Below are positions 560 through 59,763 of a DNA stretch of 64,000 nt, piece after piece. Source of the stretch: Candidatus Levyibacteriota bacterium. Its GTDB lineage: Bacteria; Patescibacteriota; Microgenomatia; Levybacterales; UBA12049. Below the pieces are notes generated by a model. The model worked only from the letters and a program-made list of their open reading frames with translations. It had not been told where the DNA came from and did no database searches. The stretch covers positions 3,257 through 67,256 of the forward strand of contig JBPOIT010000013.1 in NCBI GenBank assembly GCA_052034235.1, read 5' to 3'. Numbering within the stretch: the first letter of the stretch is position 1; each line of letters starts with the position of its first letter. The translations under genes were made by a program, and so were the position numbers.

Positions 560-2128
560 TTAATAAATTCCATTTTTCATTTGGAAGATTTTTTGTATTG
601 AGGGTTCGTAGATATCTGATAAAGATGCTGTTGTACCTTGGCATGACTTCTTTAGTGTGTAAATTCTTATTGAATAATTTTGGTCTGGGTTTGGAAAAGT
701 TTTTTCTAGAGTAAAGAAACGCTCCATACCTAAGAGTTGATCGTGTCTCGTCACAAAATATGCAGGATACTTTGAGGTAAGACATTTAAAAGAATCAATT
801 CCAGTAAACATTTTTGAATCTATATGTAGCGGAGCAAGATTGTGAGTTCTTTGTGAATAGACATTTATTGCGCTTTCCGGGTTTCCGATAGTAAAGCCAA
901 AGAGAACCAATGCCACTTCGTTTTTCGAATCTGTTTTCAAAAATTCCATTGCCTCGTAAATTCCATGTCCTGACGTTTGACCCTGAATGTGTGTAGTATC
1001 AGCAAAGTGTGATACTTTTGCGGTTTGTGAAATATATTCTTCCGGATAAAAAATGAGCAGTATTGTAATCACAAACGGAATTATTGCAGAAAATAAGACA
1101 ATAACTTTTTTCCAATAAGTTCCCACCCACAATAGATAAAGAACATAACCAGCTGGAATCACGAGAAACGGCAGGAGTGAAACAATATAACGCAGGCTTT
1201 GTGATTTGCCAGAAATAATTTGCAAAAGCAGCGCTGATAGAAAAAAGATACTGAATGCCAACGAATATTTCAGTTTCTTTTTACTCAGGAGATATAACCC
1301 GACTAAACCTGCTAAAAAAGTGAGAGGGGTTAAAAAGACAAATCCTATTTCAAAAAAACCAAAAAGATTTTTTATCCATGCTTCTATAGGAAAAGTGAGT
1401 AGTTCTCCAAGTGTATAAGCATAACGATTATTAGTGTGAAATGTTTGCCAAAAAAGTGGATTGATAAATAAGAGGAAATCGACACAAAAAAAAGTAAGCG
1501 CAGCAACTGCGTAGGCAGTTACACGATTGATCTTTTTTTCTTTTATAGTGTAACCAAGAATGATCAAGGTAGCTGCAACGACAAAAAGTAAAGCCGAAGA
1601 TTTGATAAAAAATCCTATCCCTAATATTGACCCCAGAAGGATACTATTTTTAACATTTGGTTTGTGAAGGACGTTAATCAATGCAATACATGACCATACA
1701 CCAACAAAGGCAATTCCTGCCTCCAATAGAGCTTGCCTGTTATAAAAAACAAAAAGTGGGGTTATTGCAAAAAGCAATGACGCAATAAGTGCAGCTTCTT
1801 TATTTACGATCTTTATTCCAAGTTTAAATATACCTAGTAGTGTTAGCAAACCAAAAAGGACTGATGTAAACCTTCCTGCATAAAGTGAATCAGGAAAAAT
1901 ACTTGCGAAAAATCCGAAAATCCAAATCATCAAAGGCGGCTTTGCATCAAGAAGTGAATCATATAAATGCCCCGCCATATGCGTATGAGACCACGCCCAA
2001 TCAATATAAATAGATTCATCATTAAAAATCGGAAGTAAATTGAGATTTGCCAAATGAAGCAATAAATACAAAAAACTAATTGAGATGAGTTCTTTATGAA
2101 GGATAATTATTTTATTCCAAAAACTCAT
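560..2128 (-). CDS. GT-C family integral-membrane glycosyltransferase, ArnT/GT83-like (lipid-linked-sugar dependent)
   Basis: 522 aa and hydrophobic throughout. The first extracytoplasmic loop carries LPIFNDESIYIDWAW, the DE motif of ArnT/PMT-type GT-C enzymes. Paralog of 55029..56546. Confidence 0.6.
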   Translation of the reverse strand: MSFWNKIIILHKELISISFLYLLLHLANLNLLPIFNDESIYIDWAWSHTHMAGHLYDSLLDAKPPLMIWIFGFFASIFPDSLYAGRFTSVLFGLLTLLGIFKLGIKIVNKEAALIASLLFAITPLFVFYNRQALLEAGIAFVGVWSCIALINVLHKPNVKNSILLGSILGIGFFIKSSALLFVVAATLIILGYTIKEKKINRVTAYAVAALTFFCVDFLLFINPLFWQTFHTNNRYAYTLGELLTFPIEAWIKNLFGFFEIGFVFLTPLTFLAGLVGLYLLSKKKLKYSLAFSIFFLSALLLQIISGKSQSLRYIVSLLPFLVIPAGYVLYLLWVGTYWKKVIVLFSAIIPFVITILLIFYPEEYISQTAKVSHFADTTHIQGQTSGHGIYEAMEFLKTDSKNEVALVLFGFTIGNPESAINVYSQRTHNLAPLHIDSKMFTGIDSFKCLTSKYPAYFVTRHDQLLGMERFFTLEKTFPNPDQNYSIRIYTLKKSCQGTTASLSDIYEPSIQKIFQMKNGIY

Positions 2129-2144
2129 GCTACTTTCTTATAAT

Positions 2145-3623
2145 TTATTTATTCCGTAGATCAAAAATGATGTATTGGTCGGTTTTTTCTAGGATTTTGT
2201 AGGTTTTGGCAAAAACCATATCGGCTTCTGTTGGGTTGAGAAGGACGAGGTAGCTGGCTCCTTTTTGGACCAGAATTGGCATGTCTGCTTGGAAACTTGG
2301 CCAACCTTTGCGTTTGGTGTGGTACAAAAGAGTCGTATCGCCGGTCATATTGGCAACAACTTTTGCATCTTTAGGAGTTAACCTATCAACTGCAGCACCG
2401 GCAGCGATGATTGAACGATTGTTTATATTGAAATAATCTTTGATTTGTTGCCAGCCAAACCAGAACATACCAACAAGTGCCGCAATAAGGATAATTCTGC
2501 CAGCAGGGAATTTTTTAAATCGTAATGCATAGAGATAATAACTTCCGATTGCAAAACAGATTGAGACACTTGGCATAACAAGAATTTGATAATAATCATG
2601 CTGGACGTTCCCAGTTGCGAAAATGCTGATGTAGAGTAAACTGCTTACGATAAAAGAAAGGAAAAACCACTTTTCTTTCATCTTCCAAAGTTTGAAGACA
2701 CCAAAAGCTAAAATAAGCATACCCGCGTAGCCTGAGATCAGCTTGGTTAAACGCTCATAAAAAAGCCAGCGGAAAAATGATGGTCTAAACCTGATACCAT
2801 TACCATTAAGAAGCCACATATTTGCAGGTACTCCTTCAGGATACTGCGTTATCCATATACGCCAGCCAATAAGTGGAGCGACTGCGATTGCCGCAAAAAA
2901 ATATAATTCCCACACTTTTATAAATCTCCATCCCCACTGTTGAAACACAATAGCAAGCATTGGCAGAACAAAAAACAGAGCATATGGTTTGAGAAGAAAA
3001 GCAGATGATGTGAATACGAGTGCCAAAACAAAAGAGAGATAGGTATTTTTGAGAGATGTTTTTGATTTTTGTTTTTTTCTGTTCACCTTTTCCTCGACCC
3101 ATTTATCAAAAAAATAAATTCCTCCTGTGACAGCAGTCACCATAGTTGTATCTGGCAAAATTGTTCTACCGTAATAAATGTTGTACGGAATAAACATATA
3201 AAAAAACGTTGTCAAAAGTCCAATGGGCTTATTACTATGTTTTGAGACAATCAGATATAAAAAGAGCCCAGTAAGTACCGAGGCAAACATGGAAACAAGT
3301 CTCCCCCACTGCTCAATACTAAATATCCCAAACAATTGATAAAAGCCAGCTTGGAAAAGGTTATAAAGAGGAAATTCGACAAAGCGATATCCTTCCGGAT
3401 TATCTACGCCTGTTTGGATGTTTGAGATATCATCATAACGAGGATGGAGTACATCGTATCCCTGATTTACAAAGTTTCTTGAAACTGCTGAAGTATCAAC
3501 TTGTCTCCAGCTATGCCAATCAGCAATTGGGTTATCAAAACCGTGAAGACGTACAACAAATCCTAAAAGAAGGATACCTGTTAGGATTATCTGGACGGTT
3601 TTTTTATTTTTTAAAGTAATCAT
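2145..3623 (-). CDS. GT-C family integral-membrane glycosyltransferase (GT39/PMT_2-like)
   Basis: 492 aa polytopic membrane protein with N-terminal TM then an aromatic-rich loop (DNPIADWHSWRQVD). No soluble catalytic domain. Confidence 0.5.
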   Translation of the reverse strand: MITLKNKKTVQIILTGILLLGFVVRLHGFDNPIADWHSWRQVDTSAVSRNFVNQGYDVLHPRYDDISNIQTGVDNPEGYRFVEFPLYNLFQAGFYQLFGIFSIEQWGRLVSMFASVLTGLFLYLIVSKHSNKPIGLLTTFFYMFIPYNIYYGRTILPDTTMVTAVTGGIYFFDKWVEEKVNRKKQKSKTSLKNTYLSFVLALVFTSSAFLLKPYALFFVLPMLAIVFQQWGWRFIKVWELYFFAAIAVAPLIGWRIWITQYPEGVPANMWLLNGNGIRFRPSFFRWLFYERLTKLISGYAGMLILAFGVFKLWKMKEKWFFLSFIVSSLLYISIFATGNVQHDYYQILVMPSVSICFAIGSYYLYALRFKKFPAGRIILIAALVGMFWFGWQQIKDYFNINNRSIIAAGAAVDRLTPKDAKVVANMTGDTTLLYHTKRKGWPSFQADMPILVQKGASYLVLLNPTEADMVFAKTYKILEKTDQYIIFDLRNK

Positions 3624-6600
3624 TACTGTCCTTTCATAATCCTACCCTGATCATCAAACATAAATATGACATTTTGGTCAGTTTTTTGTGCAGAGATTTG
3701 AGCTCGTGCATCTTCAATCGTTCCAACATGGTGAACCTGCGGAAGCCGATCACGATAAATAAACCATAGCGCATCATTCAAACCAACTGGGAAGAGCCAG
3801 ACTGAATCATACATATATGGAGCGCCTACAAAATATAAGTTCGTACTATTTGAAAAGCTTTCGTGTTCCAGACGGAAATAAGCTAGTGTTTCTTTGGTAA
3901 TTGAGCTTACTTTGGCCCATTTTTTGCCCATATGCTGATTTTCCTGGTAATAAACAAATGACATGATTGTCACAATAATAATGAGTCCAATGGTTATATA
4001 TTTTTGTTTCATATGCATAAGCACTACTGCTATAAAATTAAGCGCAGCAACAAACATGATGACAAATCCAACAGATGCTAAATAAAGATATCTTGGAGCT
4101 ATATTTCCCAGTCCAAGGAATGGAAGTAAACTAACTGCCGCAAACACCAATCCAAAACACACGAGAACGATTTCGTTATGTTTAAAGACATGAATAAGTT
4201 TTCGTCTAAATGTATAGAGAATAATTCCAACAATTACCATAAGGATCAAAAGTATTGAAGCGGCAAGTAATGAGTCTTCCCTGAGTCCTGAGCGGAGTGA
4301 ATCATACAGAGGAAATGCTGTATTTCCGCCAAAGAATACCAAGAGATAGCCAATGTAGTTTCCTACAAAATTGAACGGCAGATTGAGAAGATTATAACTA
4401 TAATCCCCACCACCACTGAACGCATTGGAGATCGCTCTCATAGCAAAATATGCAGGGACTAAAAGTACAAAAGGCAAATAGTGAAGCATCAGATTTTTCT
4501 TGAGTTTTGGTCTGGTTATGAATAGATCAACCACAACAAGCAGAAGTGGAATAATTACGGCTATTTCATAGGTTAAGAAGGCAAGTATGCTTAAAATAAA
4601 TGCTGTTGTGTAGGAAGGCATTGGATGCTTTCCGTTTCTGAATTTAATAAAGGCAAGTACTACATAGACAATAAACATACTTCCCATCGTTACAGATATC
4701 GTTGAGAACCAGAAAAGATTTTCATGATGAACCGGATGCAGTGCAAAAAGTACTGCAGTAACGAAACTAAGGAATCTCTTTTTAAAGAGTTTTTGTGAAA
4801 GATAATAAACGCCAAGCACGGTTATAAAATGCATAAGAAGCGTGAATAGATGATATCCTTGCGGCTGGAATGAGAAGAGTTGGTAAAGGAAATAAACGAC
4901 TGTTTTATCAAAAGGTCTATAGAAGAAATTATCAGCATTAATAAAGTAACCTGGAATATCTTTCAGTTCTGTCGTTGCTGCCCATTTGAGCCACGTGAAG
5001 TCATCAGCGACAAAAAAGTTACCTATAGATCCTGCGTATGCGGTAAGAATAATGACCAGAAGATAGATGAGTACCATGACTCTGGATGTAAAGAATTGGA
5101 ATAATTCTTGTTTGTAATTAAAGGTTTCCTTTTTATAAAGATATGCACCTCCAACTCCTATACCCAATAACATCCACATAGGTTCAGCTACTTTAGATGC
5201 CTCAAAAACATCGATCAAAATAGCATTTATTAAAAGCCCGACAACCCCTCCAGATAGTCCAAAGAGTAATGCTTTGATAATTGGATCTTTAACCAAAGGC
5301 ACGCTGTTTTTTAAGAAAATGCCTAATATGACAAAGATAAAGAGGAATGATAATAAGCCAACAAGCCCGGTTTCACCAAGTGCCCGAAGATAGTCATTAT
5401 CCGTTGCAAGTGTTAACGTCGAATATCCAGTGCCAAAGACCGGACTGAAAAGAAATGCGTTCCAGTTTCTTGGCCATTCAGCCTGGAAACGAGTTGTAAA
5501 TGAGATATCAAGTGCATATGCTTTTTTGATAAGAAAAGTCCCTGAGATAGATGATATCGCAACTTCATCCATGGTAAGCCTTTTCAATTGTGCATCTGTT
5601 AAAACAGTTGAGAAACCGCTACTTGGTGTCGCAATAGTACTTTTGTCACCTACCATAAAATCACTAGCAGGTGGTACTTCTGAAGCTTTAATTTCTTCAG
5701 CTTCCTTCGTTTTGGCGATAATTTCTTTTAAGTCAGAAGGCAAAGCTTCTTCTGTTGAAACAACCTGTACTTGCTGAATCGTTTTCCCAAAACGCTTAAT
5801 TGTCGCGTCGCTTGATATGGACATGGCGCCTATGCTGATAATCAAAACTGGAATAATCCAACGTTTGCGATTCCAGAAAACAAGCATCGATGTAATACCC
5901 ACAACATATGCTCCAAAAGACGTACGGGAAGAGGTAAAGTTAAGAACATCTAGTGCCAAAATAGCGAGTATAAATAGAAGCGCCTTATACTTAAAACGCT
6001 TTACTGCAAAAAATAATGCAACAAGAATTGGAATGACAAAAACCATGTATGCTGAAAGATCATAGTGCCCTCCAAATGTTGAAGAAACACGCGACGTCTC
6101 TGTTAAACAAAGCGGAATACCTTTTGCAAATTCTTCATTTCCTGTTAAGAATGCCGGAAAACAAAAAGGGTATTTTTCGAAAAAATTAGGGAACATCGCC
6201 CATAAAATCGTGTAGAATCTCTGTCCAAAACCATAAATGACAACACCAAGAACAGTTACACAAAGCGTAATGAGATAAAAATAGACATCCTTAACATGTC
6301 TCACTGTCGCAAATGCGATGAAAAACAGAATCATGTATTCAATTCGCCTTGCGTATTGAAGTCCGGCAACAGTTGGGAAGAAATTTACCAGGTTTGGGGC
6401 AATAAAAAGCAAACAATAAATAAGAGACGCAAGCCCGGCAATCCAGTAGAGAACAATTGCGTATCCTTCTGGTCGAGGTAGTGAAACTTTGCGACGCAGC
6501 AGCTGTACAAACCAAATGATAGCAAGGGTCAGTATGACAAAGTCTTCAAGTCGTATGTAAACCCACGTACGATCGACATGGACACTTGGGAGTTTGGGAT

Positions 6601-6679
6601 AAAGTGCAGTAAAAAGAATTGCAAAAGCAACTCCAAAACGAAGTAAATTATCATCCAAAAACTTCAAGAGTTTTTTCAT
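3623..6679 (-). CDS. 1018-aa fusion: O-antigen-ligase/Wzy_C-like domain followed by a second polytopic GT-C-like domain
   Basis: The N-terminal half contains PVFGTGYSTLTLATDNDYLRALGETGLVGLL, matching the GxGxxxxxxxxx(H/D)NxYLxxLxExGxxG signature of WaaL/PglL/Wzy_C ligases. The C-terminal roughly 480 aa form another multi-TM block (FFVADDFTWLKW...) with a soluble tail. Confidence 0.5.
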   Translation of the reverse strand: MKKLLKFLDDNLLRFGVAFAILFTALYPKLPSVHVDRTWVYIRLEDFVILTLAIIWFVQLLRRKVSLPRPEGYAIVLYWIAGLASLIYCLLFIAPNLVNFFPTVAGLQYARRIEYMILFFIAFATVRHVKDVYFYLITLCVTVLGVVIYGFGQRFYTILWAMFPNFFEKYPFCFPAFLTGNEEFAKGIPLCLTETSRVSSTFGGHYDLSAYMVFVIPILVALFFAVKRFKYKALLFILAILALDVLNFTSSRTSFGAYVVGITSMLVFWNRKRWIIPVLIISIGAMSISSDATIKRFGKTIQQVQVVSTEEALPSDLKEIIAKTKEAEEIKASEVPPASDFMVGDKSTIATPSSGFSTVLTDAQLKRLTMDEVAISSISGTFLIKKAYALDISFTTRFQAEWPRNWNAFLFSPVFGTGYSTLTLATDNDYLRALGETGLVGLLSFLFIFVILGIFLKNSVPLVKDPIIKALLFGLSGGVVGLLINAILIDVFEASKVAEPMWMLLGIGVGGAYLYKKETFNYKQELFQFFTSRVMVLIYLLVIILTAYAGSIGNFFVADDFTWLKWAATTELKDIPGYFINADNFFYRPFDKTVVYFLYQLFSFQPQGYHLFTLLMHFITVLGVYYLSQKLFKKRFLSFVTAVLFALHPVHHENLFWFSTISVTMGSMFIVYVVLAFIKFRNGKHPMPSYTTAFILSILAFLTYEIAVIIPLLLVVVDLFITRPKLKKNLMLHYLPFVLLVPAYFAMRAISNAFSGGGDYSYNLLNLPFNFVGNYIGYLLVFFGGNTAFPLYDSLRSGLREDSLLAASILLILMVIVGIILYTFRRKLIHVFKHNEIVLVCFGLVFAAVSLLPFLGLGNIAPRYLYLASVGFVIMFVAALNFIAVVLMHMKQKYITIGLIIIVTIMSFVYYQENQHMGKKWAKVSSITKETLAYFRLEHESFSNSTNLYFVGAPYMYDSVWLFPVGLNDALWFIYRDRLPQVHHVGTIEDARAQISAQKTDQNVIFMFDDQGRIMKGQ

Positions 6680-6686
6680 AGCTAGT

Positions 6687-7280
6687 TTAACGGAACCATG
6701 CAGCGCGACCTAAGTGATAATGTAACTCTTTTTCACTTCTCTCGCCTATTACTTTGGCAGGTACTCCACCTACAATTTCAAAAGCTCCAACATCCTTTGT
6801 AACAACTGCACCAGCAGCAACAATTGCACCTTTACCTATAGTTACTCCTGGCAAGATGATTGCTCTCGGACCAACAAAGACGTAGTCTTCTATAATAACA
6901 GATTGTGGTACTGCTTTAAATTCCGGATCGTGAATATCATGCTGGCAATTATAGACCATGACTTCGCTCGCAAAATCTACATGATTGCCAATCTGAAGCT
7001 TGGCTCGTCCATCCAGAACAACGCCTTCACCAATTATCGTATCTTTGCCAATCGTAATATTTGAAGGATTATAAAATCTGGCACCTGTGTGAATTGTTGA
7101 TCCTTCACCAATAATCATCCCTCCTGCTCTATAAAAAAATCTCCTAACATGGTGAAATGGAACATGACCTACAATATGCAAAATAAAAATAAAAAATTCT
7201 AAAAGCACTGTATTGGTACGGTTTTTACCCTTGTTATAAAATTCTCTTGAATTAAGTGTTCTACCTTCTCTATCTTTCAT
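6687..7280 (-). CDS. hexapeptide-repeat (LbH) sugar O-acetyltransferase, WbbJ/WcaF-like, with N-terminal membrane anchor
   Basis: Repeated [LIV]G-x4 hexapeptides ([35 protein letters not shown]...[19 protein letters not shown]). One hydrophobic helix near the N-terminus. Confidence 0.7.
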
Positions 7281-7283
7281 ATC

Positions 7284-8420: not shown

Positions 8421-8423
8421 AAT

Positions 8424-52632: not shown

Positions 52633-53257
52633 GTTCTCTTGGGTAATGAGTTACTCCAATTTCTTTGATCTTTAGTCCTTTCTTTTTTGCTTTAGCAAGA
52701 ATTTCAGTTGAAATCAGTGCTCCTTCTGAACGAAGCGGTAAAATTGTATCAACAGCGTGCCGTGTGAACATTTTAAAAGCACAATCGATATCCTTGAAGT
52801 AAAATCTGAAAAGAACTAAATCCCATACTTTTAATAAATACATTAACAATAATCGTTTAAAAAGATTTTTATCTCTCCGTTTTTTTCGGTAACCAATGAC
52901 AACATCAGCTTTATCAATTTCTTCAATAAATTTTGATATCTCTGAAAAATCAAATTGCCCATCACCGTCAGTAAAAACAACAGTATTATATTTCGTGTTT
53001 TCAAATCCAGCTTTAAGGGCAGCACCATATCCTCGGTTAGGCTGATGTGAAACAACATGCAGCCTTTTATCTTGCTTAGCAAGTCTTTTGGCAATTTTCA
53101 AGGTATCATCATAAGAACCGTCATCAACCATAACGATTTCCCATTTTGAAGCAATTTTTTCAGCAGTTTTAATTGCTGATTTAACTGTTTGTTCAATATT
53201 TTCTTCTTCGTTCCAAAAAGGAAAGAAGATTGAGAGTTCGGAGAGTTTTTTAGCCAC
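52538..53257 (-). CDS. soluble polyprenol-phosphate sugar synthase (GT2, DPM1-like)
   Basis: SIFFPFWNEEENI...IVMVDDGSYDDT...FTDGDGQFD...GYRKKRRDK...DCAFKMF. Confidence 0.75.
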   Translation of the reverse strand: MAKKLSELSIFFPFWNEEENIEQTVKSAIKTAEKIASKWEIVMVDDGSYDDTLKIAKRLAKQDKRLHVVSHQPNRGYGAALKAGFENTKYNTVVFTDGDGQFDFSEISKFIEEIDKADVVIGYRKKRRDKNLFKRLLLMYLLKVWDLVLFRFYFKDIDCAFKMFTRHAVDTILPLRSEGALISTEILAKAKKKGLKIKEIGVTHYPRELGHQTGANLPVIMRAVLESLILWYDLHYGRA

Positions 53258-54983
53258 GTTTATTAACCTTTCTGGAAAGGATTATACCAGCTAGCAGTAC
53301 AATAACTCCAGTGAGAGATAATGCATTCCCCAGCATTTCAATTGGCGTTTGTGTATAAATAACTTCAAGCGTATGTTTTCCCTGAGGAACATTCACAAGA
53401 AGCCCTTTTTTAAAATATTTAAATTCCTGCTGCTTATTGTCTATATAGACATGCCAGCCCGGGAAATAAGCAACGGAAAGTAATACTTCAGTTTGTTTTG
53501 CTGCCTCGATTTCTGCTTTGATGATGGTCGTCTTCTCACTATATGAAATTACTTTAATATTTTTATTCTCTGTTAGTTTTTGTTTTGGAACATCCTTAAT
53601 ACTGACTGGTTTTTGAAATCCTTTTGGCATATACTCATCCGAAATGAGAGAAATGTCCCATGTTAATTCTTCTTTACTCGTAAAGTCTTTTGCTGTTTTT
53701 TCATAAATTTTATCAGGGGCAAATAATTTTCCGTTAAAAACAATAATCGCTGCTATGATAACGATTCCTGCCGCAATCTGCACTGTTGATTTTTTCTGTA
53801 AGAGTACAAAGATCGCCCCTCCCAGGAACGAAAGACAAAAAGTTATAAGGAGTAAGAATCTCCATGGGAATTGAAAAAATGCCATGTGCGGAATGCTATC
53901 CCAAATAAATTTAGAAAATTGGCTAGTTAGAAAAATCGAAAAGACTGCAACCAGTATGGATAAGAGAATTGCGAAGCGCACGCGTTTTTGCGCTCGATAG
54001 ATATATAAAGGGATGAGAGATAATAAAGCTAAGAGAATATGTAATTTGCCAATTTTAAAAGACATCCCGTCTAAACAGCCAGGTGCCGAACCTGCAAATC
54101 CCCACTGACTTTCCCATAATTGGCTGAGACAGAGAAAGTGATCTTTATAATCTGAGCCACCGCCAACAACAGATAATACGTTGGTGTATTGCATTTCAAA
54201 GAGGACTGGCAGCCAATAAAACCCAGAGAGCAAAATACCAAGAAGAAAACTCAGAAGAATAAAAAATGATTTAATAGTCTGAAATTTAAATCTGGCGATA
54301 GAATAGAGCAAGATTGCAAAACCAAACAAAAATGGGGTTACCATCATGGCAGTCAGGTTATGAGAAACAACAATCGCACAGTACCCTAAAGCAGCAGCAG
54401 CAATCCAATACCATACATTGCTTTGACTTTTGGTTTTTGATTTTGAGTCAGTTTTTTTTGTTACATTCTCAAAGATTTTATAGAGTGCAAGAAACGCAAG
54501 TGGTAGAAATCCATATGCCCATAACTCCCCAATTGCTCCACGTACATAAATATTTAGTGCGTGATACGGAGCATACATATAGAGCATTGCTGCGACAATC
54601 CCTCCAATTTTGCCCCAGAATTCTTTAGCTAGAAGATACATAAAGATTCCGGCAAGAAGTGTCCCTAGTCCTATCATAATTTTTGTGGCGATTAAACTAT
54701 CAAAGCCGAGCAGATTGAAAATTCCGCCGACATAATAAGCAAGCGGGCCGTAAAAATTAAAAATTGGATATCCATAGTTATAACCCAGGTCTGGAACCCA
54801 ACGTACTGGAAACATACCATCGGCAAGTGCAGTTTTCATTTCATAAACTCTCGCTACTTGTGTATCGTCGTGTACTCGAAAAAATCCTGCAGAAAAAAGT
54901 GGTTTGACAGCAAAGAAAGAAAGTACAATAACGAGTATTAGGGCAGCATATTTTTTAAAATAGTTCATTTTTAAATTATACAT
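53250..54983 (-). CDS. YfhO-like polytopic GT-C-type membrane protein with C-terminal extracytoplasmic domain and terminal TM (type F paralog)
   Basis: 577 aa with FRVHDDTQVARVYEM, YVRGAIGE, YFPGWHVYIDNKQQE and a final helix LTGVIVLLAGIIL. It overlaps the downstream DPM1-like gene by 8 nt. Confidence 0.4.
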   Translation of the reverse strand: MYNLKMNYFKKYAALILVIVLSFFAVKPLFSAGFFRVHDDTQVARVYEMKTALADGMFPVRWVPDLGYNYGYPIFNFYGPLAYYVGGIFNLLGFDSLIATKIMIGLGTLLAGIFMYLLAKEFWGKIGGIVAAMLYMYAPYHALNIYVRGAIGELWAYGFLPLAFLALYKIFENVTKKTDSKSKTKSQSNVWYWIAAAALGYCAIVVSHNLTAMMVTPFLFGFAILLYSIARFKFQTIKSFFILLSFLLGILLSGFYWLPVLFEMQYTNVLSVVGGGSDYKDHFLCLSQLWESQWGFAGSAPGCLDGMSFKIGKLHILLALLSLIPLYIYRAQKRVRFAILLSILVAVFSIFLTSQFSKFIWDSIPHMAFFQFPWRFLLLITFCLSFLGGAIFVLLQKKSTVQIAAGIVIIAAIIVFNGKLFAPDKIYEKTAKDFTSKEELTWDISLISDEYMPKGFQKPVSIKDVPKQKLTENKNIKVISYSEKTTIIKAEIEAAKQTEVLLSVAYFPGWHVYIDNKQQEFKYFKKGLLVNVPQGKHTLEVIYTQTPIEMLGNALSLTGVIVLLAGIILSRKVNKRG

Positions 54984-55028: not shown

Positions 55029-56546
55029 TCATTCTGAGAGTAACTGATAAACAGTATGATATGTATCCTTTTCTATCTTTTGATATTGATATATCTTTTT
55101 AACGGGCCATGCTTTTGGAGCTTCACCTGTAAATCTGCAACTTGAACACGATTGATAAAAAACAACATATGTTGGCATTTTTTTACTCATTTCAATAAGT
55201 TCTTGAGGAGGATTATCTTCAACTGGCCATATCCCTTCAATAGTTATATTTGGATTGTCATGCAAATAAATTTCAAGTGCGTATGGAAGGAGACCAAACG
55301 TACCGCCAGTCGCTACATATATTCTTTTGTTTTTACTTTCTTTTTCTAAAAGAGCAACTGTCTCAGCAACTCCTCCCCCAGCAGGCCATGCTCTGTAATA
55401 CTGATTAAGATCAGATCTTGCGATTGAAGCTTTATCAAAGTCTGTCAGAATGAACATATCTGTAATGACATATGGAAGCATAAAAACAAAGAGAATTCCA
55501 GCTTTTATCCACCTATTAGGTAATCCATGAAGAATGGTATAAAAAGAAAATGCCCCTAATGCTAAAAGCGGCATTGTCATAAATAAAATATATCGAGGGT
55601 ATAATAATTTACCAAATGTCGCTAGTGCAATAAATGGAATGATAAACCAAGCAAAGAGTAATAATTTTTCTCTCAGATATTTTTTGCCGATAAAAAAAGA
55701 AGCAAAAATAAAAATAAGGACAGGTACCTCCGTGTAATCAACAAGCCATCCCCAAAGCGTAATGATATTCGGAGTAAGAAAAGTGAATGGATGCTGAATC
55801 CATTCATTAAATGGATAAACAAAAACTGCGTCTTTTTGAGCTACGATATAAAAGAATGGTGAGAGACGCAATAACGCGTAAATTGCTTGCGCGATAAAAA
55901 CCGCGATAAAGGCACAGATACCCCATCTTATTAATTTCTTTTTCCAAACCTTATCTTTAAAATTAAAGAGGAAGAGTGAAAATGGAAGGAGAATTACTGC
56001 AAAATTTGCACTTGATTTATTGAGGAGTCCTATCCCAATAACGACACCCAACAAAACTGCTAAACGAAAATCTCGTTTTCTTACCAGAAGAATTTCTATA
56101 TATAACGACCAAATAATAAATGCCGCAACTAACGAATCATAGAGCGCAATCCTGTCATAAACGAGTGCAAATGGGTAGAGTAAATACAGAAATGACGCAA
56201 CAATAGCAATTTTTTTACTACGGAATAATTCTTTTGTGAGAAAGAATAATCCCACCATAGAAGCCAAACCTGCCATTACAGAAACCAGTCTGCCAGCAAG
56301 AAGTGGATCGGAAATGACATACATATTTAGCATGGCTAGCCAAACAAACAGTGGTTGCTTTCCGTCAGTGAGCGAAATAAAAATCCAATCAGGATCATTT
56401 CCAGCTATCTGCGCCCAACGAAGGTAAATTGCTTCATCAGTAAAAATTGGAAAAGCTGTAATATTTGCAAGCCTGGTAAAAAGATATACTGCAAGAAATC
56501 CAAAACCAAGGATCCAAAGAATTTGTTTTTTATGTAATCGCGTCAT
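55029..56546 (-). CDS. GT-C family integral-membrane glycosyltransferase, ArnT/GT83-like (type A paralog of 560..2128)
   Basis: AFPIFTDEAIYLRWAQ DE motif, then LYPFALVYDRIALYD. 505 aa polytopic. Confidence 0.6.
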   Translation of the reverse strand: MTRLHKKQILWILGFGFLAVYLFTRLANITAFPIFTDEAIYLRWAQIAGNDPDWIFISLTDGKQPLFVWLAMLNMYVISDPLLAGRLVSVMAGLASMVGLFFLTKELFRSKKIAIVASFLYLLYPFALVYDRIALYDSLVAAFIIWSLYIEILLVRKRDFRLAVLLGVVIGIGLLNKSSANFAVILLPFSLFLFNFKDKVWKKKLIRWGICAFIAVFIAQAIYALLRLSPFFYIVAQKDAVFVYPFNEWIQHPFTFLTPNIITLWGWLVDYTEVPVLIFIFASFFIGKKYLREKLLLFAWFIIPFIALATFGKLLYPRYILFMTMPLLALGAFSFYTILHGLPNRWIKAGILFVFMLPYVITDMFILTDFDKASIARSDLNQYYRAWPAGGGVAETVALLEKESKNKRIYVATGGTFGLLPYALEIYLHDNPNITIEGIWPVEDNPPQELIEMSKKMPTYVVFYQSCSSCRFTGEAPKAWPVKKIYQYQKIEKDTYHTVYQLLSE

Positions 56547-57739
56547 AGGTGTTTTTTCTTTGCTTTAAGATGTTTTTTTTCTTTCATAAGGCTCCATATA
56601 GCAAGATTATACATAAACGGCAGAACGACTAGCAAATATCTTGGCCATGTTGGAACAACTGATAGGAAAATCAAATAAATAATAATCCAAATTGCACACA
56701 ACACAATAGGCTCTTTTATCTGTTCACGAATAATCTTATAGAGTGCATAAAGTGAGAGCAGAACAAGAAGAGGCCATCCAAGATGCCATTCTGAGACATT
56801 CATATACTCCCCCCACCATGTATGCCATTTACCAGTAAATAATATTTCCCATGGAGCCATGAATGATCCTTGTGCACCACTGCTGTAGAAATTGATAATC
56901 CATTTTTGAACACCCAGAAATTCAGTAAAAGAATTGCCGAGAATAAAAAATTGAATATACGTTACGGTAAAGACCACGCCTGCAATAGGTAAACTAATCG
57001 TGTACTTTTTAAAAAGTTTATATTGCTTCGTAAGTATGAGATAGAAAACTGATAAAGCTATGACAAGTGGGAAAGTTGATGCAGCAGATTTAGTAGCCGC
57101 CGCAAGACCGAGCATAATTGAAGATCTGATTAACTGCTTTTTAATAAGAAAAGTCATTGCAAGAAGTAACAATCCAAGGAAAAGTAAATCGAGAAACGGT
57201 GCACGAAGTTGTGTATAGAAGAGCGGTTCAAATGAGAAAAAGAGTACTGGTAGAAAAGAAAGCACGCGATCTTTAAATATTTGCATACTAAAAAGATAAA
57301 GTGCACCAAGTGCAAAAAGACCGCTTAAAAGAGCAAATATATTTTGATTTTTAAAGACAACTTCTGATAAACCGATAAGGTATTTCCCAAAAGGTGGAAC
57401 TTCTGCATTGAGTAATGTCGGATCACGTCCATGGATATATTCCCACCCAGCATAGGTATAGAGACTATCATCACCAATTGATTGCTTTTTAAAATCATTG
57501 CCTTTTTTCCCCTCTTCACTTTTTGCATACCAATGATCGTCCCAGACGCAGGTAAATGGATTCACATGCGGGTCTAAATTCTCACATGCGGGCTTGGTAC
57601 TCCATTGAGAATATTCGTAACGTTCTTTCCAGAAATCCGGATCATATGGGGTAAGATATTCTTGTCTATATTCAAATATCCGAAAACCTAGGTGTATTGA
57701 AAAAAGGACGACGAGTAAAAGAAATACTTTTTGTTTCAT
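56543..57739 (-). CDS. GT39/PMT-like GT-C membrane glycosyltransferase (type B paralog of 31204..32370)
   Basis: NAEVPPFGKYLIG, SFEPLF and WHTWWGEY blocks shared with 31204..32370. Confidence 0.5.
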   Translation of the reverse strand: MKQKVFLLLVVLFSIHLGFRIFEYRQEYLTPYDPDFWKERYEYSQWSTKPACENLDPHVNPFTCVWDDHWYAKSEEGKKGNDFKKQSIGDDSLYTYAGWEYIHGRDPTLLNAEVPPFGKYLIGLSEVVFKNQNIFALLSGLFALGALYLFSMQIFKDRVLSFLPVLFFSFEPLFYTQLRAPFLDLLFLGLLLLAMTFLIKKQLIRSSIMLGLAAATKSAASTFPLVIALSVFYLILTKQYKLFKKYTISLPIAGVVFTVTYIQFFILGNSFTEFLGVQKWIINFYSSGAQGSFMAPWEILFTGKWHTWWGEYMNVSEWHLGWPLLVLLSLYALYKIIREQIKEPIVLCAIWIIIYLIFLSVVPTWPRYLLVVLPFMYNLAIWSLMKEKKHLKAKKKHL

Positions 57740-59004
57740 AGTTTTTTTGTGAGCTTTTGTTTTTTATGCGCTTTTACAAAGGCATATTGTTTGTAAGAGA
57801 AGATAACAGCGAAAACAAAAAAAGATACGCTATAACTGAAAAAATTTATATCAGATAAGATTTGAGGGATTGGCTTGTCCCAATTCCCAACAAAAAGATA
57901 CGGTACATAATTTAATAATGCTGCAAAAGAAATAATTATTGAAGGAATAAGAACGTAATATCTATGCGCGAGAAAAACTGCAAAAGGAAATATTGCCAGG
58001 AGATACCATGGTTGAAAATTTGAAATTGTAGATTCCACATATACACCTATGACCATAAGCAGCAATCCAATTGTCATGAGCGGTTCCCAATGCAATTCTT
58101 TTTTTCTCCACAAGAACAAATGCATCAGGAGGAAAACCGGTGCGATAAAAGCAGTAACAAATTTCACACCAACAGATAAAGCAAAGAGGATATATGCAAA
58201 AATATATTTTTTAGTCAGTAATAAATAAAATGCCCACAGACTCAAAAACATCATAACAATATCTAAATGTCCACTCACCAAACTTTCAATCAGTACCAAT
58301 GGATTAAGCGCGAAGAAAATTAAACCAAAAACTTCTCTATCTGGTGCAAGTTTTTGAAAGATTTTACCGATAAAATAAGAGCATCCTATGAAACTTGCTA
58401 CCATAAGGAATTTGAAAAGAAAAAATGTCGGTAGAAAAAACTGCATACCTACAAATGATAAAGGCAGAGAAATACCAAGCCAAACCGGACCATACGGATA
58501 TACTCGATGAGTCCATCTCATAAAAGAGAGCATCGGATCCCCCGGATAATCAAGTGCTTTATGTTCATATGGATTTTCATGATACTGCGTGACAATCTTT
58601 GCATCAAAAATGTAATTAAACATATCATACGAAAATGCATTGTAGGAAAAAACTAAAAGAAGTGCCGAAATAATTATCGATGACCAGACGAACGGTTTGC
58701 CAATTTTCTTCTTGTGAGCTAATCGAAGAATTACAGCATAAAATATATAAAGAAGTACAACAATACTTATATAAAGAAGTGTCGATAGCGGCCTGTCAAA
58801 ATAGCCTATGCGTTGGAATGCAGTCGTGATTGTGCGTAGGACTTCTATTCGGGAGAATGTAAGACTCAAATCTACCTGAGTAAACGAATAAAGAAATAAT
58901 CCTAGAAGTACAATGCTGTAAAGGAAAAGAAGTATTTTTTCTCTATTCTGTAATTTTATTAAGACTCCAAACATATGCCACTTTCTAACACCCATCCACA
59001 TCAC
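57736..59004 (-). CDS. polytopic membrane protein, GT87/DUF2029-like (PimE-type polyprenol-P-mannose-dependent mannosyltransferase-like)
   Basis: 422 aa hydrophobic throughout. HENPYEHKALDYPGDP loop and LNPLVLIESLVSGHLD (NP...GH.D pattern). The start is probably ATG at 59001 after AGGTG. Confidence 0.35.
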   Translation of the reverse strand: MMWMGVRKWHMFGVLIKLQNREKILLFLYSIVLLGLFLYSFTQVDLSLTFSRIEVLRTITTAFQRIGYFDRPLSTLLYISIVVLLYIFYAVILRLAHKKKIGKPFVWSSIIISALLLVFSYNAFSYDMFNYIFDAKIVTQYHENPYEHKALDYPGDPMLSFMRWTHRVYPYGPVWLGISLPLSFVGMQFFLPTFFLFKFLMVASFIGCSYFIGKIFQKLAPDREVFGLIFFALNPLVLIESLVSGHLDIVMMFLSLWAFYLLLTKKYIFAYILFALSVGVKFVTAFIAPVFLLMHLFLWRKKELHWEPLMTIGLLLMVIGVYVESTISNFQPWYLLAIFPFAVFLAHRYYVLIPSIIISFAALLNYVPYLFVGNWDKPIPQILSDINFFSYSVSFFVFAVIFSYKQYAFVKAHKKQKLTKKL

Positions 59005-59763
59005 CTAACTATACTTCCCAGCTAAAATGTTCCTTTTTATACGGAGTAAATCTTTAATCCCTTGAATTGAATCACTGACTGGGTTAACTCTTCTCGTTTC
59101 GACATGCAGCCATTCGATACCTACTTCCTTTACTTTAAAACCTTTTTGTTTGGCTAGGTAGAGAATTTCAATATCTAGTCCAAAAGTAATCGCTGTTCCC
59201 TTCACCTGCGTAAATCCCTCTTTTAAATCACGGAATTTTGTAAAAACTGTTTCTGCTGCTTCACTCGTGAAGAGTTTAAAACCACACTGCGTATCAGAAA
59301 TTTCACGAATTCCGATGATCATTTTACGAAGCAGAATAGCGCTTTTGGAAATAAGTAGTCGTATTGCTGGAGCACCTTTACGCACGTCATTTCGTGAACC
59401 TATTGCAATATCATATTCTTTACTCTCAAGAAACGGCAGTAATTTATTTACTTCTTCAATTGGGGTTGCTTGATCCATATCGGTAAACAAACGATACGAA
59501 CCTGTTGCCTTAAGCATGCCGGTTGTAACAGCTCCAGCTTTACCATAATGTGGATTTTGAATAAGTATAAAATGAGGGTTATCTTTAATAAACTTCTTAA
59601 GAAACGCAACACTGCCATCTTTGGAGCCGTCATCGACAACAATCACTTCATAAGCGAATTTTTTCTTTTCGAGGAAGTGTTCAATCTTATCAAGAACACC
59701 TTTCTGCAGATTAGCCATCTCATCATAACAAGGTATTATTACTGAGAGATATATTTTCTTCAT
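59005..59763 (-). CDS. soluble polyprenol-phosphate sugar synthase (GT2, dolichyl-phosphate beta-glucosyltransferase/DPM1-like)
   Basis: SVIIPCYDEMANL...VIVVDDGSKDGS...FTDMDQATP...GSRNDVRKG...DTQCGFKLF. TATAAT lies 7 nt upstream of the ATG. Confidence 0.75.
   Translation of the reverse strand: MKKIYLSVIIPCYDEMANLQKGVLDKIEHFLEKKKFAYEVIVVDDGSKDGSVAFLKKFIKDNPHFILIQNPHYGKAGAVTTGMLKATGSYRLFTDMDQATPIEEVNKLLPFLESKEYDIAIGSRNDVRKGAPAIRLLISKSAILLRKMIIGIREISDTQCGFKLFTSEAAETVFTKFRDLKEGFTQVKGTAITFGLDIEILYLAKQKGFKVKEVGIEWLHVETRRVNPVSDSIQGIKDLLRIKRNILAGKYS

Follow-up and report, generated by a model that had tools for sequence, protein, structure and literature searches.

The gene content of the window (the whole stretch of 64,000 nucleotides that we analysed) is best explained by a composite locus for assembly of cell-surface glycoconjugates, in which several co-oriented modules share one logic; we put the probability of this reading at roughly 0.7. 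Most likely, a lipid-linked glycan would be made in the cytoplasm, flipped across the membrane by Wzx and then elaborated on the outside by GT-C enzymes that draw on polyprenol-phosphate (Pol-P) sugars. The enzyme types themselves are already known, and three of the GT-C families found here were previously unannotated.

The ORF listing, together with Pfam searches of all 50 main ORFs, confirms that a near-continuous glycan locus of ~59 kb spans positions 560-59763. As a first, sequence-only reading had proposed, this run is dominated by glycan genes on the minus strand, which carries 45 of the 49 genes, and 45 genes can be linked to glycans by their profile, fold or paralogy. The four plus-strand exceptions, the only genes below not on the minus strand, are two small ORFs (42536-43132 and 44232-44528), g36 (44579-46531) and g37 (46535-48400). 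Spacing is operon-like, with overlaps of 4 nt (ten), 8 nt (three), 11 nt (one) and 1 nt (three) in the spacing table and remaining intergenic gaps mostly below 40 nt. The right end at 59763 holds: beyond it Pfam recognises GlnA, a Lyase_1 enzyme and HupE/UreJ. The proposed left end at 560 does not, since a secreted delta-60-repeat protein with a signal peptide starts at 495 on the same strand, directly downstream of g1.

GT-C enzymes, of which at least 14 had been predicted, account for 17 modules, namely 16 stand-alone proteins and one half of the fusion protein g3. Seven proteins exceed the curated cut-offs of GT-C families (in bits, 26.1 for PF13231, 22.7 for PF02366 and 25 for PF09594; the Wzy_C family PF04932 has 31.7). 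The PMT_2/ArnT-like g1 (560-2128; 522 aa, ~10 TM) reaches 69.9 bits with PF13231 and has an NDE motif after TM1; its paralogue g44 (55029-56546; PMT_2/PMT) reaches 54.3 with PF13231 and 34.7 with PF02366, and g2 (2145-3623; PMT_2/PMT) exceeds both cut-offs with 34.4 and 30.8, respectively. The PMT_2 protein g8 (9999-11576) scores 30.9 with PF13231, and g37 (PMT) 24.2 with PF02366. Both g34 (40825-42513; PTPS_related/DUF6541, YfhO-like architecture; PF10131 41.5, PF20176 35.8 bits) and its paralogue g43 (53250-54983; YfhO/PTPS_related; PF09586 42.4, PF10131 34.3 bits) exceed the cut-offs of two families each. The PMT_2-like g31 (37432-39135) falls 0.5 bits short of the PF13231 cut-off with 25.6, is related to g37 and g44, and shares 38% identity (E 4e-105) with the PMT-like g30 (35773-37428), which has a DWDE motif after TM1; g37 is a paralogue of both. 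Likewise, g28 (33375-34928) is a paralogue of g8 (blastp 2e-14 over 468 aa). Three GT-C-like assignments are based on sub-threshold scores or paralogy only: the GT87-like g45 (56543-57739; PF09594 20.2 bits, below 25, E 5.5e-4), its polytopic paralogue g26 (31204-32370; blastp 1e-39) and the MptA/MptB/GT87-like g46 (57736-59004; PF09594 24.7 bits, below 25; TIGR03459 E 5e-13, MptB 1e-6).

The previously unannotated proteins g11, g13 and g36 are predicted, from profile comparisons, to share the GT-C fold. The first (13590-15734; YfhO-like architecture) belongs to a Pfam-less family whose members come from CPR MAGs wherever the source names an organism; g13 (17074-19263) belongs to a small Levybacteria-type family and has a C-terminal CBM-like beta-sandwich; and g36 represents a Pfam-less family of 911 representative clusters. 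In hhalign, g13 matches g11 at 96%, and g36 matches the g11 family at 97%, the g1 group at 96.6% and g34/g43 at 95.5%; conserved D/E residues are aligned in both the g13-g11 and the g36-g11 match. For the combined g8 and g28 profile the match is 96% with the g36 family and 91% with the g1 group; for that of g26 and g45 it is 89-91% with the g1 group. The fusion protein g3 (3623-6679; 1018 aa) has an N-terminal Wzy_C half of the O-antigen ligase/polymerase type (PF04932 34.3 bits, above 31.7) and a GT-C-like C-terminal half, whose profile gives 92% against the g1 group. At least 1392 proteins belong to its family, and the best 120 are all ~1015 aa and full length, with PF13231 or PF10131 also present in 7 of these 120. 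A wider hhalign network joins all PMT-like, YfhO-like and GT87-like groups with the C-terminal half of g3. Acidic motifs in the loop after TM1 were read directly from the sequences, and an acidic residue is invariant in the three families tested (D37 in g11, D125 in g36, and D560, within VADDF, in g3).

The donors for such enzymes would come from five DPM1/GtrB-like GT2 proteins, as many as had been counted before. The GtrB/ArnC-type g7 (9012-9959; two C-terminal TM helices) matches solved structures end to end (ArnC E 1e-36, GtrB 4e-29, Pyrococcus DPMS 4.5e-16; full-length alignment to the first two), scores 144 bits with PgfS and 138 with ArnC in NCBIfam, and has a DAD motif. The soluble DPM1/AglJ-like g32 (39125-39835; TIGR04182 AglJ 121 bits, residues 3-232) also has DAD; the soluble ArnC/PgfS-like g42 (52538-53257; PgfS 85, ArnC 83.5 bits, residues 3-213) has DGD; and the DPM1-like g47 (59005-59763; PF00535 91, PgfS 52 bits), first gene of its unit, has DMD and matches a Dol-P-hexose transferase model over residues 12-220. 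In the weaker, DPM1/PpgS-like g23 (28035-28829; PF00535 78, PpgS 44, ArnC 41 bits) the DxD motif is degenerate (DSG), so that four of the five retain it. Genes for these putative synthases lie beside GT-C genes (g7-g8; g32-g31-g30; g43-g42; g47-g46-g45-g44), as in known three-component glycosylation systems. We found neither a reassignment of most polytopic proteins to transporter or other non-glycosyltransferase families nor a general loss of the DxD motif and Pol-P-sugar synthase architecture, which supports the original coupling of GT-C enzymes with Pol-P-sugar synthases.

The remaining glycan genes are of more familiar types. There are two Wzx/MOP flippases, as noted before: g24 (28856-30130; 11 TM; PF13440 57, PF01943 55 bits) and g41 (51103-52632; PF13440 150.6, NF007773 104 bits). 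Instead of nine GT4 proteins we count seven complete ones, with PF00534 scores in bits of 131 for g5 (7284-8420), 122 for g12 (15731-16999), 60.7 for g14 (19267-20514), 66 for g16 (21750-22904), 105 for g22 (26938-28038), 102 for g25 (30155-31207) and 69 for g35 (43125-44195), plus a stand-alone GT4 N-terminal domain, g6 (8424-8972; 182 aa; PF13439 only), a conserved partner of g5 that is a separate gene in the related loci L083 and L085 and in many others. Further GT2 proteins number five rather than six: g21 (25941-26936; C-terminal TM helices; PF00535 74.6 bits), g29 (34925-35773; 67.5), g33 (39832-40785; 86, PF13641 72), g38 (48397-49149; 76) and g40 (50190-51110; 97.5). Eight tailoring enzymes complete the set: UDP-glucose 4-epimerase GalE (g27, 32367-33344; TIGR01179 395.7 bits, above 262.3); an FdtA-like cupin, a keto-sugar isomerase (g20, 25535-25939; PF05523 41.6 bits, above 23); the DegT-family PLP enzymes g15 (20571-21743; RfbH-like; PF01041 210 bits) and g18 (23874-24971; DegT/PseC-like sugar aminotransferase; PF01041 398 bits); the SDR sugar epimerases/reductases g9 (11545-12525; Fcl-like; PF01370 186 bits) and g17 (22897-23877; PF01370 122 bits); the NeuD/PglB/VioB-type sugar N-acetyltransferase g19 (24971-25531; PF00132 77 bits); and the WcaF-like hexapeptide O-acetyltransferase g4 (6687-7280; PF00132). 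More specific models stayed below cut-off for g15 (NF011936 214), g18 (TIGR03588 248), g9 (NF047922 209), g19 (TIGR03570 98) and g4 (NF007797 104 bits).

This standard content of Wzx, GT4/GT2, Wzy_C and acetyl- and aminotransferases is what a conventional capsule or O-antigen-like heteropolysaccharide locus of the Wzx/Wzy-dependent type would hold, its polytopic proteins being mostly polymerases, ligases, acyltransferases or structural membrane proteins rather than glycosyltransferases; g26, which has no Pfam match of its own, even occupies the usual place of a Wzy polymerase, between GT4 and GalE and near Wzx. Nevertheless, we regard such a locus as very unlikely, given the seven proteins above GT-C cut-offs and the conserved acidic motifs after TM1; moreover, it would leave five Pol-P-sugar synthase-like GT2 proteins with no consumer, and the window holds neither an initiating phosphoglycosyltransferase nor a chain-length regulator. 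Since the left part shares the classical content of O-antigen or S-layer-glycan loci, the earlier statement that this is not a classical O-antigen or capsule locus is only half right: the locus is a hybrid of that content with the GT-C/Pol-P-sugar theme.

Read from gene content, the composite pathway would run as follows. First, in the cytoplasm, GalE, the FdtA-like isomerase, the two DegT-type enzymes, the N- and O-acetyltransferases and the two SDRs would supply modified nucleotide sugars, from which the seven GT4 proteins, the GT4 half-protein and the five GT2 proteins would build one or more lipid-linked oligosaccharides. Second, the two flippases would carry these across the membrane to its outer side, where the Wzy_C half of g3 could polymerise the glycan or ligate it to its acceptor. 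In parallel, the five synthases would load single sugars onto polyprenol phosphate, and the seventeen GT-C modules, all of which carry an acidic motif in the loop after TM1, would use them on the extracytoplasmic side to lengthen, branch or decorate the product. Pfam and NCBIfam searches of the window found no initiating phosphoglycosyltransferase (Bac_transf or MraY/WecA type), GtrA-type small flippase, chain-length regulator, LCP ligase, NDP-sugar pyrophosphorylase or 4,6-dehydratase, nor were these functions seen in the opening residues of recurrent unassigned ORFs in related loci; in cis, therefore, the proposed pathway lacks some of its parts.

Gene order in the block g3-g24 recurs on many metagenome contigs, with named homologues from CPR MAGs, and points to a conserved envelope-glycan pathway. 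Across 80 metagenome loci the genes repeatedly follow the order Wzx, GT2, GT4, GT2, GT4, g11, g10, PMT_2, GtrB-like GT2, GT4 N-domain, GT4, acetyltransferase, Wzy_C, and the g11 homologue shares its orientation with 405 of the 423 genes recognised there; in the 34 loci that span 12 kb or more, a DPM1/GtrB-like GT2 is present in 27 and a GT4 in 32. L083 preserves the order from g24 to g4 at 38-85% identity. As a local copy of this recurrent CPR order, the block probably makes an envelope glycopolymer or glycoprotein glycan typical of the lineage, and the modules beyond it would be strain-variable elaborations. Parts of the locus are mobile, as shown by cassette swapping between close relatives and by a G+C content that is lower in the cluster (0.35) than in the right flank (0.41).

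Whether these modules are in fact three or more independent adjoining glycan loci in a small genome, each with its own product (a core at ~3.6-30 kb, a second set at 30-42.5 kb, the plus-strand pair g36-g37 and a right unit at 50.2-59.8 kb), is a question on which we lean slightly to the negative. The right-hand unit has its own Wzx, real breaks interrupt the gene run at 42513-43125, 44195-44579 and 49915-50190, the promoter-like site at 50169-50142 is the strongest in the region, cassettes are replaced between close relatives, and recurrence beside g11 homologues is limited to g3-g24 and, sporadically, g36, g37 and g45. However, co-orientation with 0-40-nt spacing extends over 42 kb from g34 to g1, homologues of g36, g37 and g45 lie within the core in L087, L105, L106, L153 and L155, and Pol-P-sugar donors are plausibly common to several modules; in mechanism, moreover, the two views are compatible. 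The composite locus probably comprises several modules rather than one pathway, and the two Wzx genes, the three breaks and the small extent of the conserved block speak for more than one product.

We agree with the sequence-only reading that the acceptor is not identifiable from the window. A role mainly in O-glycosylation of proteins (S-layer proteins, pilins or secreted adhesins) rather than in polysaccharide or lipoglycan synthesis, with PMT/PMT_2-type GT-C enzymes and the Wzy_C protein as a PglL/WsaB-like O-oligosaccharyltransferase, seems to us rather unlikely. In its favour, CPR cells are usually described as monoderm and lacking LPS, in which case the Wzy_C protein could not be a lipid A-core ligase. 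The protein O-mannosyltransferase family PF02366 is above cut-off in g2, g37 and g44, but the family name leaves the acceptor unfixed, since PMT_2 also spans ArnT and many enzymes that modify glycans or lipids. Also in favour of protein glycosylation are the top NCBIfam match of g7, PgfS, which comes from a streptococcal adhesin-glycosylation system, and the match of g41 to an O-glycosylation flippase model (86.6 bits, below cut-off). Pilin O-glycosylation has been predicted in Saccharibacteria (PMC11623550). In L085, likewise in favour, PMT_2/TPR genes, including PMT_2-TPR fusions, adjoin the cluster on its left side, and the delta-60-repeat gene next to g1 would offer a secreted candidate; yet that gene is not at the same position in L085, and the related loci have no conserved acceptor protein. 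A long polymer would be a better fit than short protein-bound glycans for the seven GT4, the five additional GT2, the two Wzx and the CBM-like domain of g13.

By sequence similarity, the host is placed as a Levybacteria-like Patescibacterium (CPR): GlnA is 73-78% identical to CPR MAG proteins, and named homologues of g13, g11 and g3 are from Levybacteria, Woesebacteria, Staskawiczbacteria or Patescibacteria. As a crude control, we searched 1.27 Mb flanking glnA in 80 other genomes with the window proteins (tblastn, E<1e-10); GT-C homologues were absent and GT2/GT4 matches were confined to two loci, as against 17 GT-C modules in 59 kb here. The core is unusual, as had been suggested for the locus, relative to well-studied bacteria, but common among contigs of the poorly studied CPR.

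Four genes within the locus have no glycan assignment. The orphan membrane protein g10 (12560-13606), which has no match in Pfam, NCBIfam or PDB, accompanies g11-type GT-C genes, following the g11 homologue in 22 loci. On the plus strand, 42536-43132 is a small ORF with an N-terminal TM helix, no Pfam match and uncertain cluster membership, and 44232-44528, first gene of the plus-strand unit, encodes a small DUF5652 membrane protein (PF18893 75.9 bits). Finally, g39 (49169-49915) is HisG-like (PF01634 44.7 bits, above 25.5; TIGR00070 60.8, below 75.75; PDB HisG 1e-4).

Between 560 and 59763, a six-frame ORF listing yields 47 large ORFs, called g1 to g47 here from left to right, and two small plus-strand ORFs, and 45 of these 49 lie on the minus strand. 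Their spacing is operon-like, with ten overlaps of 4 nt, three of 8 nt, one of 11 nt and three of 1 nt, and most of the remaining intergenic gaps are shorter than 40 nt; real breaks occur only at 42513-43125, at 44195-44579 (the divergent region) and at 49915-50190. The only plus-strand unit is headed by a DUF5652 small membrane protein (44232-44528, plus strand; 75.9 bits) and continues with g36-g37, a pair of GT-C genes, i.e. genes for polytopic extracytoplasmic glycosyltransferases. The G+C content of the cluster is 0.35 versus 0.41 in the right flank, and it goes down to 0.31-0.33 at 16000-22000 (g12-g15), a region that includes g13, the member of the smallest and most lineage-restricted family. 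The right boundary is sharp: beyond 59763 there are genes for glutamine synthetase, a Lyase_1 enzyme, HupE/UreJ and a CsoR-like repressor. The latter two (the repressor being CsoR/RcnR-like), together with a small secreted protein that looks DUF305-like by eye, make up a metal-homeostasis group (62762-64000, plus strand) that has nothing to do with the glycan locus. On the left, 560 does not mark the end: a minus-strand gene for delta-60 repeats begins at 495, directly downstream of g1, and leaves the window. Its product (1-495, minus strand; TIGR02608, 114 bits) has a signal peptide and could possibly be a surface protein or the acceptor. A conserved acceptor at this place is unsupported, as a different, polytopic gene occupies the position in L085, a related contig in which g1 is followed by more PMT_2-TPR, methyltransferase and TPR genes.

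All 50 main ORFs were searched with Pfam and subsets of them with NCBIfam; a simple hydropathy script, used to count TM helices, predicted at least five for 18 proteins other than the Wzx-type flippases. Seven proteins (g1, g2, g8, g34, g37, g43 and g44) score above curated Pfam GT-C cut-offs. PMT_2 (PF13231) is matched by g1, g2, g8 and g44 and PMT (PF02366) by g2, g37 and g44; g34 exceeds the cut-offs of PTPS_related (41.5 bits) and DUF6541 (35.8 bits), and g43 those of PTPS_related (PF10131; 34.3 versus 26.4 bits) and YfhO (PF09586; 42.4 versus 28.5 bits), the latter over the last 75 model positions only. To judge by these profiles, g34 and g43 are probably members of the wider clan, with the YfhO match of g43 a partial one. 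The score of g31 is narrowly under the PMT_2 cut-off (25.6 versus 26.1), and g28 and g30 are placed by paralogy and hhalign only. All-against-all BLASTP paired g1 with g44, g8 with g28, g34 with g43 and g26 with g45, and grouped g30 with g31 (38% identity) and g37. In hhalign comparisons, the g1 group matched the g30 group at 97%, the g36 family at 96.6%, g34/g43 at 94%, g8/g28 at 91% and g26/g45 at 89-91%, the last of these values supporting a relation of g26 and g45 to GT-C enzymes. Altogether we count 16 stand-alone GT-C proteins plus the C-terminal module of g3, occupying 29.3 kb or 49% of the region; the sequence-only reading had claimed at least 14. The cut-off of GT87 (PF09594) is not reached, with both g46 (24.7) and g45 (20.2) scoring below 25. 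Against the mannosyltransferase-type models, g46 reaches 48.7 bits for TIGR03459 (cut-off 439; E 5e-13) and 27.3 for MptB (cut-off 40; E 1e-6), and we regard g45 and g46 as GT87-like by sequence rather than as members of GT87. In every GT-C candidate, the loop that follows TM1 contains an acidic motif (NDE, TDE, WDE, DWDE, YDE, HDD, GDW, GGEY, FDDLWH, PDE or GDD). Given their families and their adjacency to synthase-like GT2 genes, the 17 GT-C modules would use polyprenol-phosphate or -diphosphate sugar donors on the outer face of the membrane.

Four polytopic proteins, g10, g11, g13 and g36, were left as orphans after Pfam, BLASTP and NCBIfam. The g11 family comprises at least 195 clusters, all of them "hypothetical" and from CPR MAGs wherever named, the g36 family 911 representative clusters (E <1e-3) and the g13 family 13 clusters, one of which is a named Levybacteria; no Pfam domain is assigned to any of the three. 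PDB sequence and profile searches with the g11, g13, g36, g3 and g10 families returned nothing. By hhalign, g36 matches g11 at 97.1% (E 5e-11), g13 matches g11 at 96.2%, and the g34/g43 pair matches the g11 family at 96%. The alignments superpose acidic residues D125 of g36, D37 of g11 and E39 of g13, which follow TM1 and are invariant, the former two in 46 sequences each and the latter, along with D45, in 12. At the level of fold, g11 is similar to solved GT-C enzymes, with an N-terminal TM bundle and long outside loops, and its overall layout (N-terminal TM bundle, outside domain, C-terminal TM anchor) is YfhO-like; g13, which carries a CBM-like domain, is likewise similar to solved GT-C enzymes, and both have AftD and AftA among their best structural matches. 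The top structural match of g11 is STT3B, with STT3, PglB and AglB also among the best; membership of this oligosaccharyltransferase family was rejected for lack of an STT3 or any other Pfam match at E <=10 and of WWD or WWDxG in the g11 sequence, and the resemblance is one of fold only. The fourth orphan, g10 (12560-13606, minus strand), has one TM helix at the N terminus and four at the C terminus, with an outside domain of ~170 aa in between, and it found no Pfam, NCBIfam, PDB or hhalign match even with a 16-member profile. Its candidacy as a GtrA-like flippase was dropped because none of 16 family members has a Pfam match. In 22 related loci a g10 homologue directly follows the g11-type GT-C gene.

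The N-terminal half of g3 scores 34.3 bits against Wzy_C (PF04932; gathering cut-off 31.7), a domain that is also precomputed for most members of its family. This family has at least 1392 members, and the best 120 are all ~1010-1035 aa long and alignable from end to end (44-72% identity), with the name "O-antigen ligase family protein" given to them in MAGs of Levybacteria and Patescibacteria; precomputed Pfam lists PMT_2 or PTPS_related as well in 7 of these 120. VADDF comes after the first TM helix of the C-terminal half, and its D560 does not vary among 36 aligned members. Since in hhalign the profile of this half reaches 92.4% with the g1 group, 88.7% with the g11 family and 88.8% with the g36 family, and that of the N-terminal half matches none of the three, we conclude that g3 is a conserved fusion of Wzy_C with a GT-C module. 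Its Wzy_C domain may act as a ligase, a polymerase or an O-oligosaccharyltransferase.

Both the five DPM1/GtrB-like synthases of polyprenol-phosphate sugars and the two Wzx-type flippases proposed from sequence inspection were recovered. The former (g7, g23, g32, g42 and g47) fall into a single BLAST group and all exceed the PF00535 cut-off; the DxD motif is present in four (DAD in g7 and g32, DGD in g42, DMD in g47) and degenerate in g23 (DSG). The 315-aa g7 aligns end to end with solved ArnC (1e-36, residues 2-306), GtrB (4e-29) and Pyrococcus DPMS (4.5e-16) and has two C-terminal TM helices at 229-279. Such full-length similarity, including the TM hairpin, is seen for g7 only, the other four showing a catalytic-domain match and no TM helix. 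The best models are AglJ for g32 (121 bits) and PgfS and ArnC for g42 (85 and 84 bits), with weaker matches for g23 and g47; because all five scores lie far below the NCBIfam equivalog cut-offs, sugar specificities are not assignable. The synthase genes adjoin GT-C genes (g7 next to g8; g32 to g31 and g30; g42 to g43; g47 to g46, g45 and g44). As for the flippases, g24 (57.3 and 55.4 bits) and g41 (150.6 and 47.2 bits) score above the Polysacc_synt and Polysacc_synt_3 cut-offs, with 11 predicted TM helices each. The listed TTG start of g41 (51103-52632, minus strand) overlaps g42 by 95 nt, and the true start is probably further downstream. No ORF of the window matched the GtrA-type small flippase profile (PF04138).

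On the cytoplasmic side there are seven complete GT4 enzymes (g5, g12, g14, g16, g22, g25 and g35), the GT4 N-domain-only g6 and ten GT2 enzymes, and the glycosyltransferase genes of the cluster number ~35 in all. The stand-alone N-terminal domain g6 (8424-8972, minus strand; 182 aa) lies directly upstream of the complete GT4 g5 (7284-8420, minus strand). It might be taken for a pseudogene fragment, were it not that g6 and g5 remain two genes in the related contigs L083 and L085 and in many metagenome loci; this conservation in distant loci makes g6/g5 a conserved split or partner arrangement. Tailoring enzymes comprise an FdtA-like cupin (g20), two DegT-family PLP enzymes (g15 and g18), a NeuD/VioB-type N-acetyltransferase (g19), a WcaF-type O-acetyltransferase (g4) and two Fcl-like SDRs (g9 and g17). 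Upon first Pfam impression g27 was a dTDP-glucose 4,6-dehydratase, but it scores above the GalE equivalog cut-off and is thus GalE, and a full Fdt pathway is therefore not demonstrable. Profile searches of the window found no nucleotidyltransferase, 4,6-dehydratase or LCP ligase, and among the 50 main and the small window ORFs there was neither an initiating phosphoglycosyltransferase (Bac_transf or MraY/WecA) nor a chain-length regulator.

The gene order from g24 to g4 is retained in L083, a 203-kb contig, at 38-85% identity and with only g9 missing. A close relative is represented by the contig L085 (112 kb), in which identity is 77-96% for g2-g7 (g6 lowest) and only 50% for g1, and comparison of its positions 1-16141 with 560-19263 of the window shows the g8-g13 stretch replaced by analogues of g10, g11 and g16 with 27-33% identity, a swap of cassettes such as occurs at surface-antigen loci. 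Scanning metagenomes with the g11 profile added 80 loci, in which 405 of the 423 genes recognised run in the same direction as the g11 homologue. Their recurring order is Wzx, DPM1-like GT2, GT4, GT2, GT4, g11, g10 and PMT_2, followed by g36 or g45 (optional), GtrB-like GT2, GT4 N-domain, GT4, acetyltransferase and Wzy_C. Among the 34 loci of at least 12 kb, GT4 is present in 32, DPM1/GtrB-like GT2 in 27, a further new-type GT-C in 15 and Wzx in 13. On account of this recurring order we regard g3-g24 as a conserved block, with less conservation elsewhere in the window. An ORF family absent from the window (78 ORFs of 188-330 aa) occurs in 42 of the 80 loci and reads as a putative methyltransferase from the motif VVDVGCFIG in one representative; other recurrent neighbours, going by opening residues only, are UDP-glucose dehydrogenase-like, further GT-C-like and CDP-alcohol phosphotransferase-like. 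The same reading of opening residues, made without profiles, revealed no apparent phosphoglycosyltransferase among the recurrent unassigned ORFs of these loci.

While the parts and their order are observed, the steps of the following model are drawn from established properties of these families. Tailored nucleotide sugars would feed GT4 and GT2 enzymes, which assemble a lipid-linked glycan in the cytoplasm; Wzx would flip it, and the Wzy_C domain of g3 would polymerise or ligate it. In parallel, the five DPM1/GtrB-like enzymes would make polyprenol-phosphate monosaccharides, with which the GT-C enzymes could extend and decorate the glycan extracytoplasmically. The initiating phosphoglycosyltransferase may be encoded outside the window, wecA being located elsewhere for many O-antigen loci. 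Another possibility is that a DPM1-like enzyme begins the assembly on polyprenol monophosphate, by analogy with archaeal AglJ-initiated glycans, which would explain why a phosphoglycosyltransferase is missing.

Two kinds of product can be envisaged. Protein glycosylation is favoured by the PMT-type matches, by a Wzy_C domain without a lipid A-core target (CPR cells are usually described as monoderm and without LPS and, if so, offer no lipid A-core for ligation) and by the neighbouring secreted repeat protein. The many GT4/GT2 genes and the CBM-like domain of g13 speak for a polymer. In a more far-reaching reading, to which we would give a probability of roughly 30%, the product of the conserved core (Wzx, the GT2/GT4 set, g11-type GT-C with g10, PMT_2-type GT-C, a GtrB-like synthase, the split GT4 pair and the Wzy_C-GT-C fusion of 1015 aa) would be an envelope glycopolymer characteristic of Patescibacteria. 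Functionally it would correspond to teichoic acids or mycobacterial lipoglycans; GT-C enzymes would polymerise it, for the most part outside the membrane, from polyprenol-phosphate sugars, and envelope integrity or attachment to host cells would depend on it. Pressure from phages or hosts would lead to its diversification through the variable cassettes that flank the core.

Several known systems share elements of this arrangement. In three-component extracytoplasmic systems, such as GtrA/GtrB/Gtr of enterobacterial O-antigen modification, CsbB-YfhO (LTA) and GtlA/GtlB in Firmicutes, and GacI/GacL and PgfS/PgfM in streptococci, a GtrB/ArnC-type GT2 adjoins a polytopic GT-C, as it does here; g43 and g34 match YfhO/PTPS_related models, and the layout of g11 is YfhO-like. 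Those systems have one of each component, whereas the cluster has 17 GT-C modules and five synthases, lacks a GtrA-type flippase, has no C-terminal TM hairpin on four of the five synthases and includes three GT-C families that match nothing in Pfam. Mycobacterial assembly of lipomannan/lipoarabinomannan and arabinogalactan (Ppm1; PimE, MptA/MptB; AftA-D, Emb) likewise deploys many different GT-C enzymes, each of which, in the cluster, would presumably form one linkage outside from polyprenol-phosphate sugars; g11 and g13 have structural matches to AftD/AftA, and g46 resembles MptA/MptB. Sequence identity, however, is only 10-13%, no decaprenyl-phosphoribose pathway (UbiA-type) was recognised in the cluster, Wzx and Wzy_C are present in addition, and genes that are scattered over 4.4 Mb in mycobacteria are packed here into 59 kb of a genome of probably 1 Mb.

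Wzx/Wzy-dependent O-antigen loci, and Gram-positive S-layer glycan (slg) clusters with a Wzy_C-type O-oligosaccharyltransferase (WsaB, PglL), have in common with the cluster Wzx, GT4/GT2 enzymes and a Wzy_C protein, along with an FdtA-like isomerase, an aminotransferase and an N-acetyltransferase for an acetamido-deoxy-sugar. Unlike them, the window lacks both an initiating phosphoglycosyltransferase and a chain-length regulator, its Wzy_C domain forms part of a fusion with a GT-C module, and GT-C proteins, normally missing from such loci, take up half of the cluster DNA. Archaeal Agl N-glycosylation (Haloferax AglJ, AglD, AglR, AglS and AglB) can start on polyprenol monophosphate via a DPM1-like GT2, and has a Wzx-like flippase and a GT-C that adds the final sugar from Dol-P-sugar. 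Here the likeness consists in AglJ being the best model of g32 and AglB a structural match of g11, yet the organism is a bacterium, all equivalog cut-offs are missed widely, and no oligosaccharyltransferase was recognised, g11 having neither the STT3 match nor the motif. Finally, actinobacterial and eukaryotic O-mannosylation (Ppm1/Dpm1 with Pmt, GT39) relies on one Pmt family, in contrast to the many paralogous families here, and no MIR domains were detected in the cluster. Overall, the logic appears to combine that of three-component systems and of the assembly of mycobacterial lipoglycans with a Wzx/Wzy_C module resembling those of O-antigen and S-layer-glycan loci.

We found no description of such a locus in the searchable literature. 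New are its scale, 17 GT-C modules at a single site in a genome of probably 1 Mb, and a core order that recurs across many metagenome contigs, with named homologues from CPR. The GT-C repertoire would gain three candidate families without profile annotation (the g11, g13 and g36 types), a widespread Wzy_C-GT-C fusion and the orphan partner g10, and the split GT4 pair g6/g5 appears to be new too. Patescibacteria account for much of bacterial diversity, have genomes of ~1 Mb and spend their lives attached to other cells; their surface chemistry is, to our knowledge, essentially unknown. Glycosylation in Saccharibacteria has been called "unexplored" (PMC11623550), a survey counted on average 15 CAZy genes per freshwater CPR genome (PMC9166423), and in one Tn-seq study of Southlakia predicted EPS genes were essential or fitness-relevant (PMC10633639). 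The cluster supplies concrete candidates for the molecules of envelope structure, host attachment or phage recognition in these bacteria.

The neighbouring glnA (59931-61370, plus strand) encodes a protein 73-78% identical to those of Levybacteria, Kaiserbacteria, Saccharimonadales and other CPR MAGs and ~74% identical to those of Nitrospira MAGs, which suggests either lateral spread of this glnA type or mis-binning; none of 80 loci fetched by glnA-anchored synteny had cluster genes beside glnA. Within the cluster, g39 (49169-49915, minus strand) is a HisG-like protein of the ATP phosphoribosyltransferase fold that scores above the cut-off of PF01634 and under the equivalog cut-off of TIGR00070, with PDB HisG matches of only 1e-4; from its sequence, PRPP use or ligand binding is conceivable. 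Neither an Rfam family, the gap at 49915-50190 included, nor a tRNA was found in the window, and as promoter-like sites in a promoter scan were no commoner than in shuffles, we draw no operon map from them. The best such site of the region (50169-50142, minus strand; 11/12 matches plus an upstream TG) lies in this 274-nt gap, with a terminator-like hairpin at 49979-49962 between it and the g39 start, and the gap may hold a leader or regulatory element, or an alternative start of g39.
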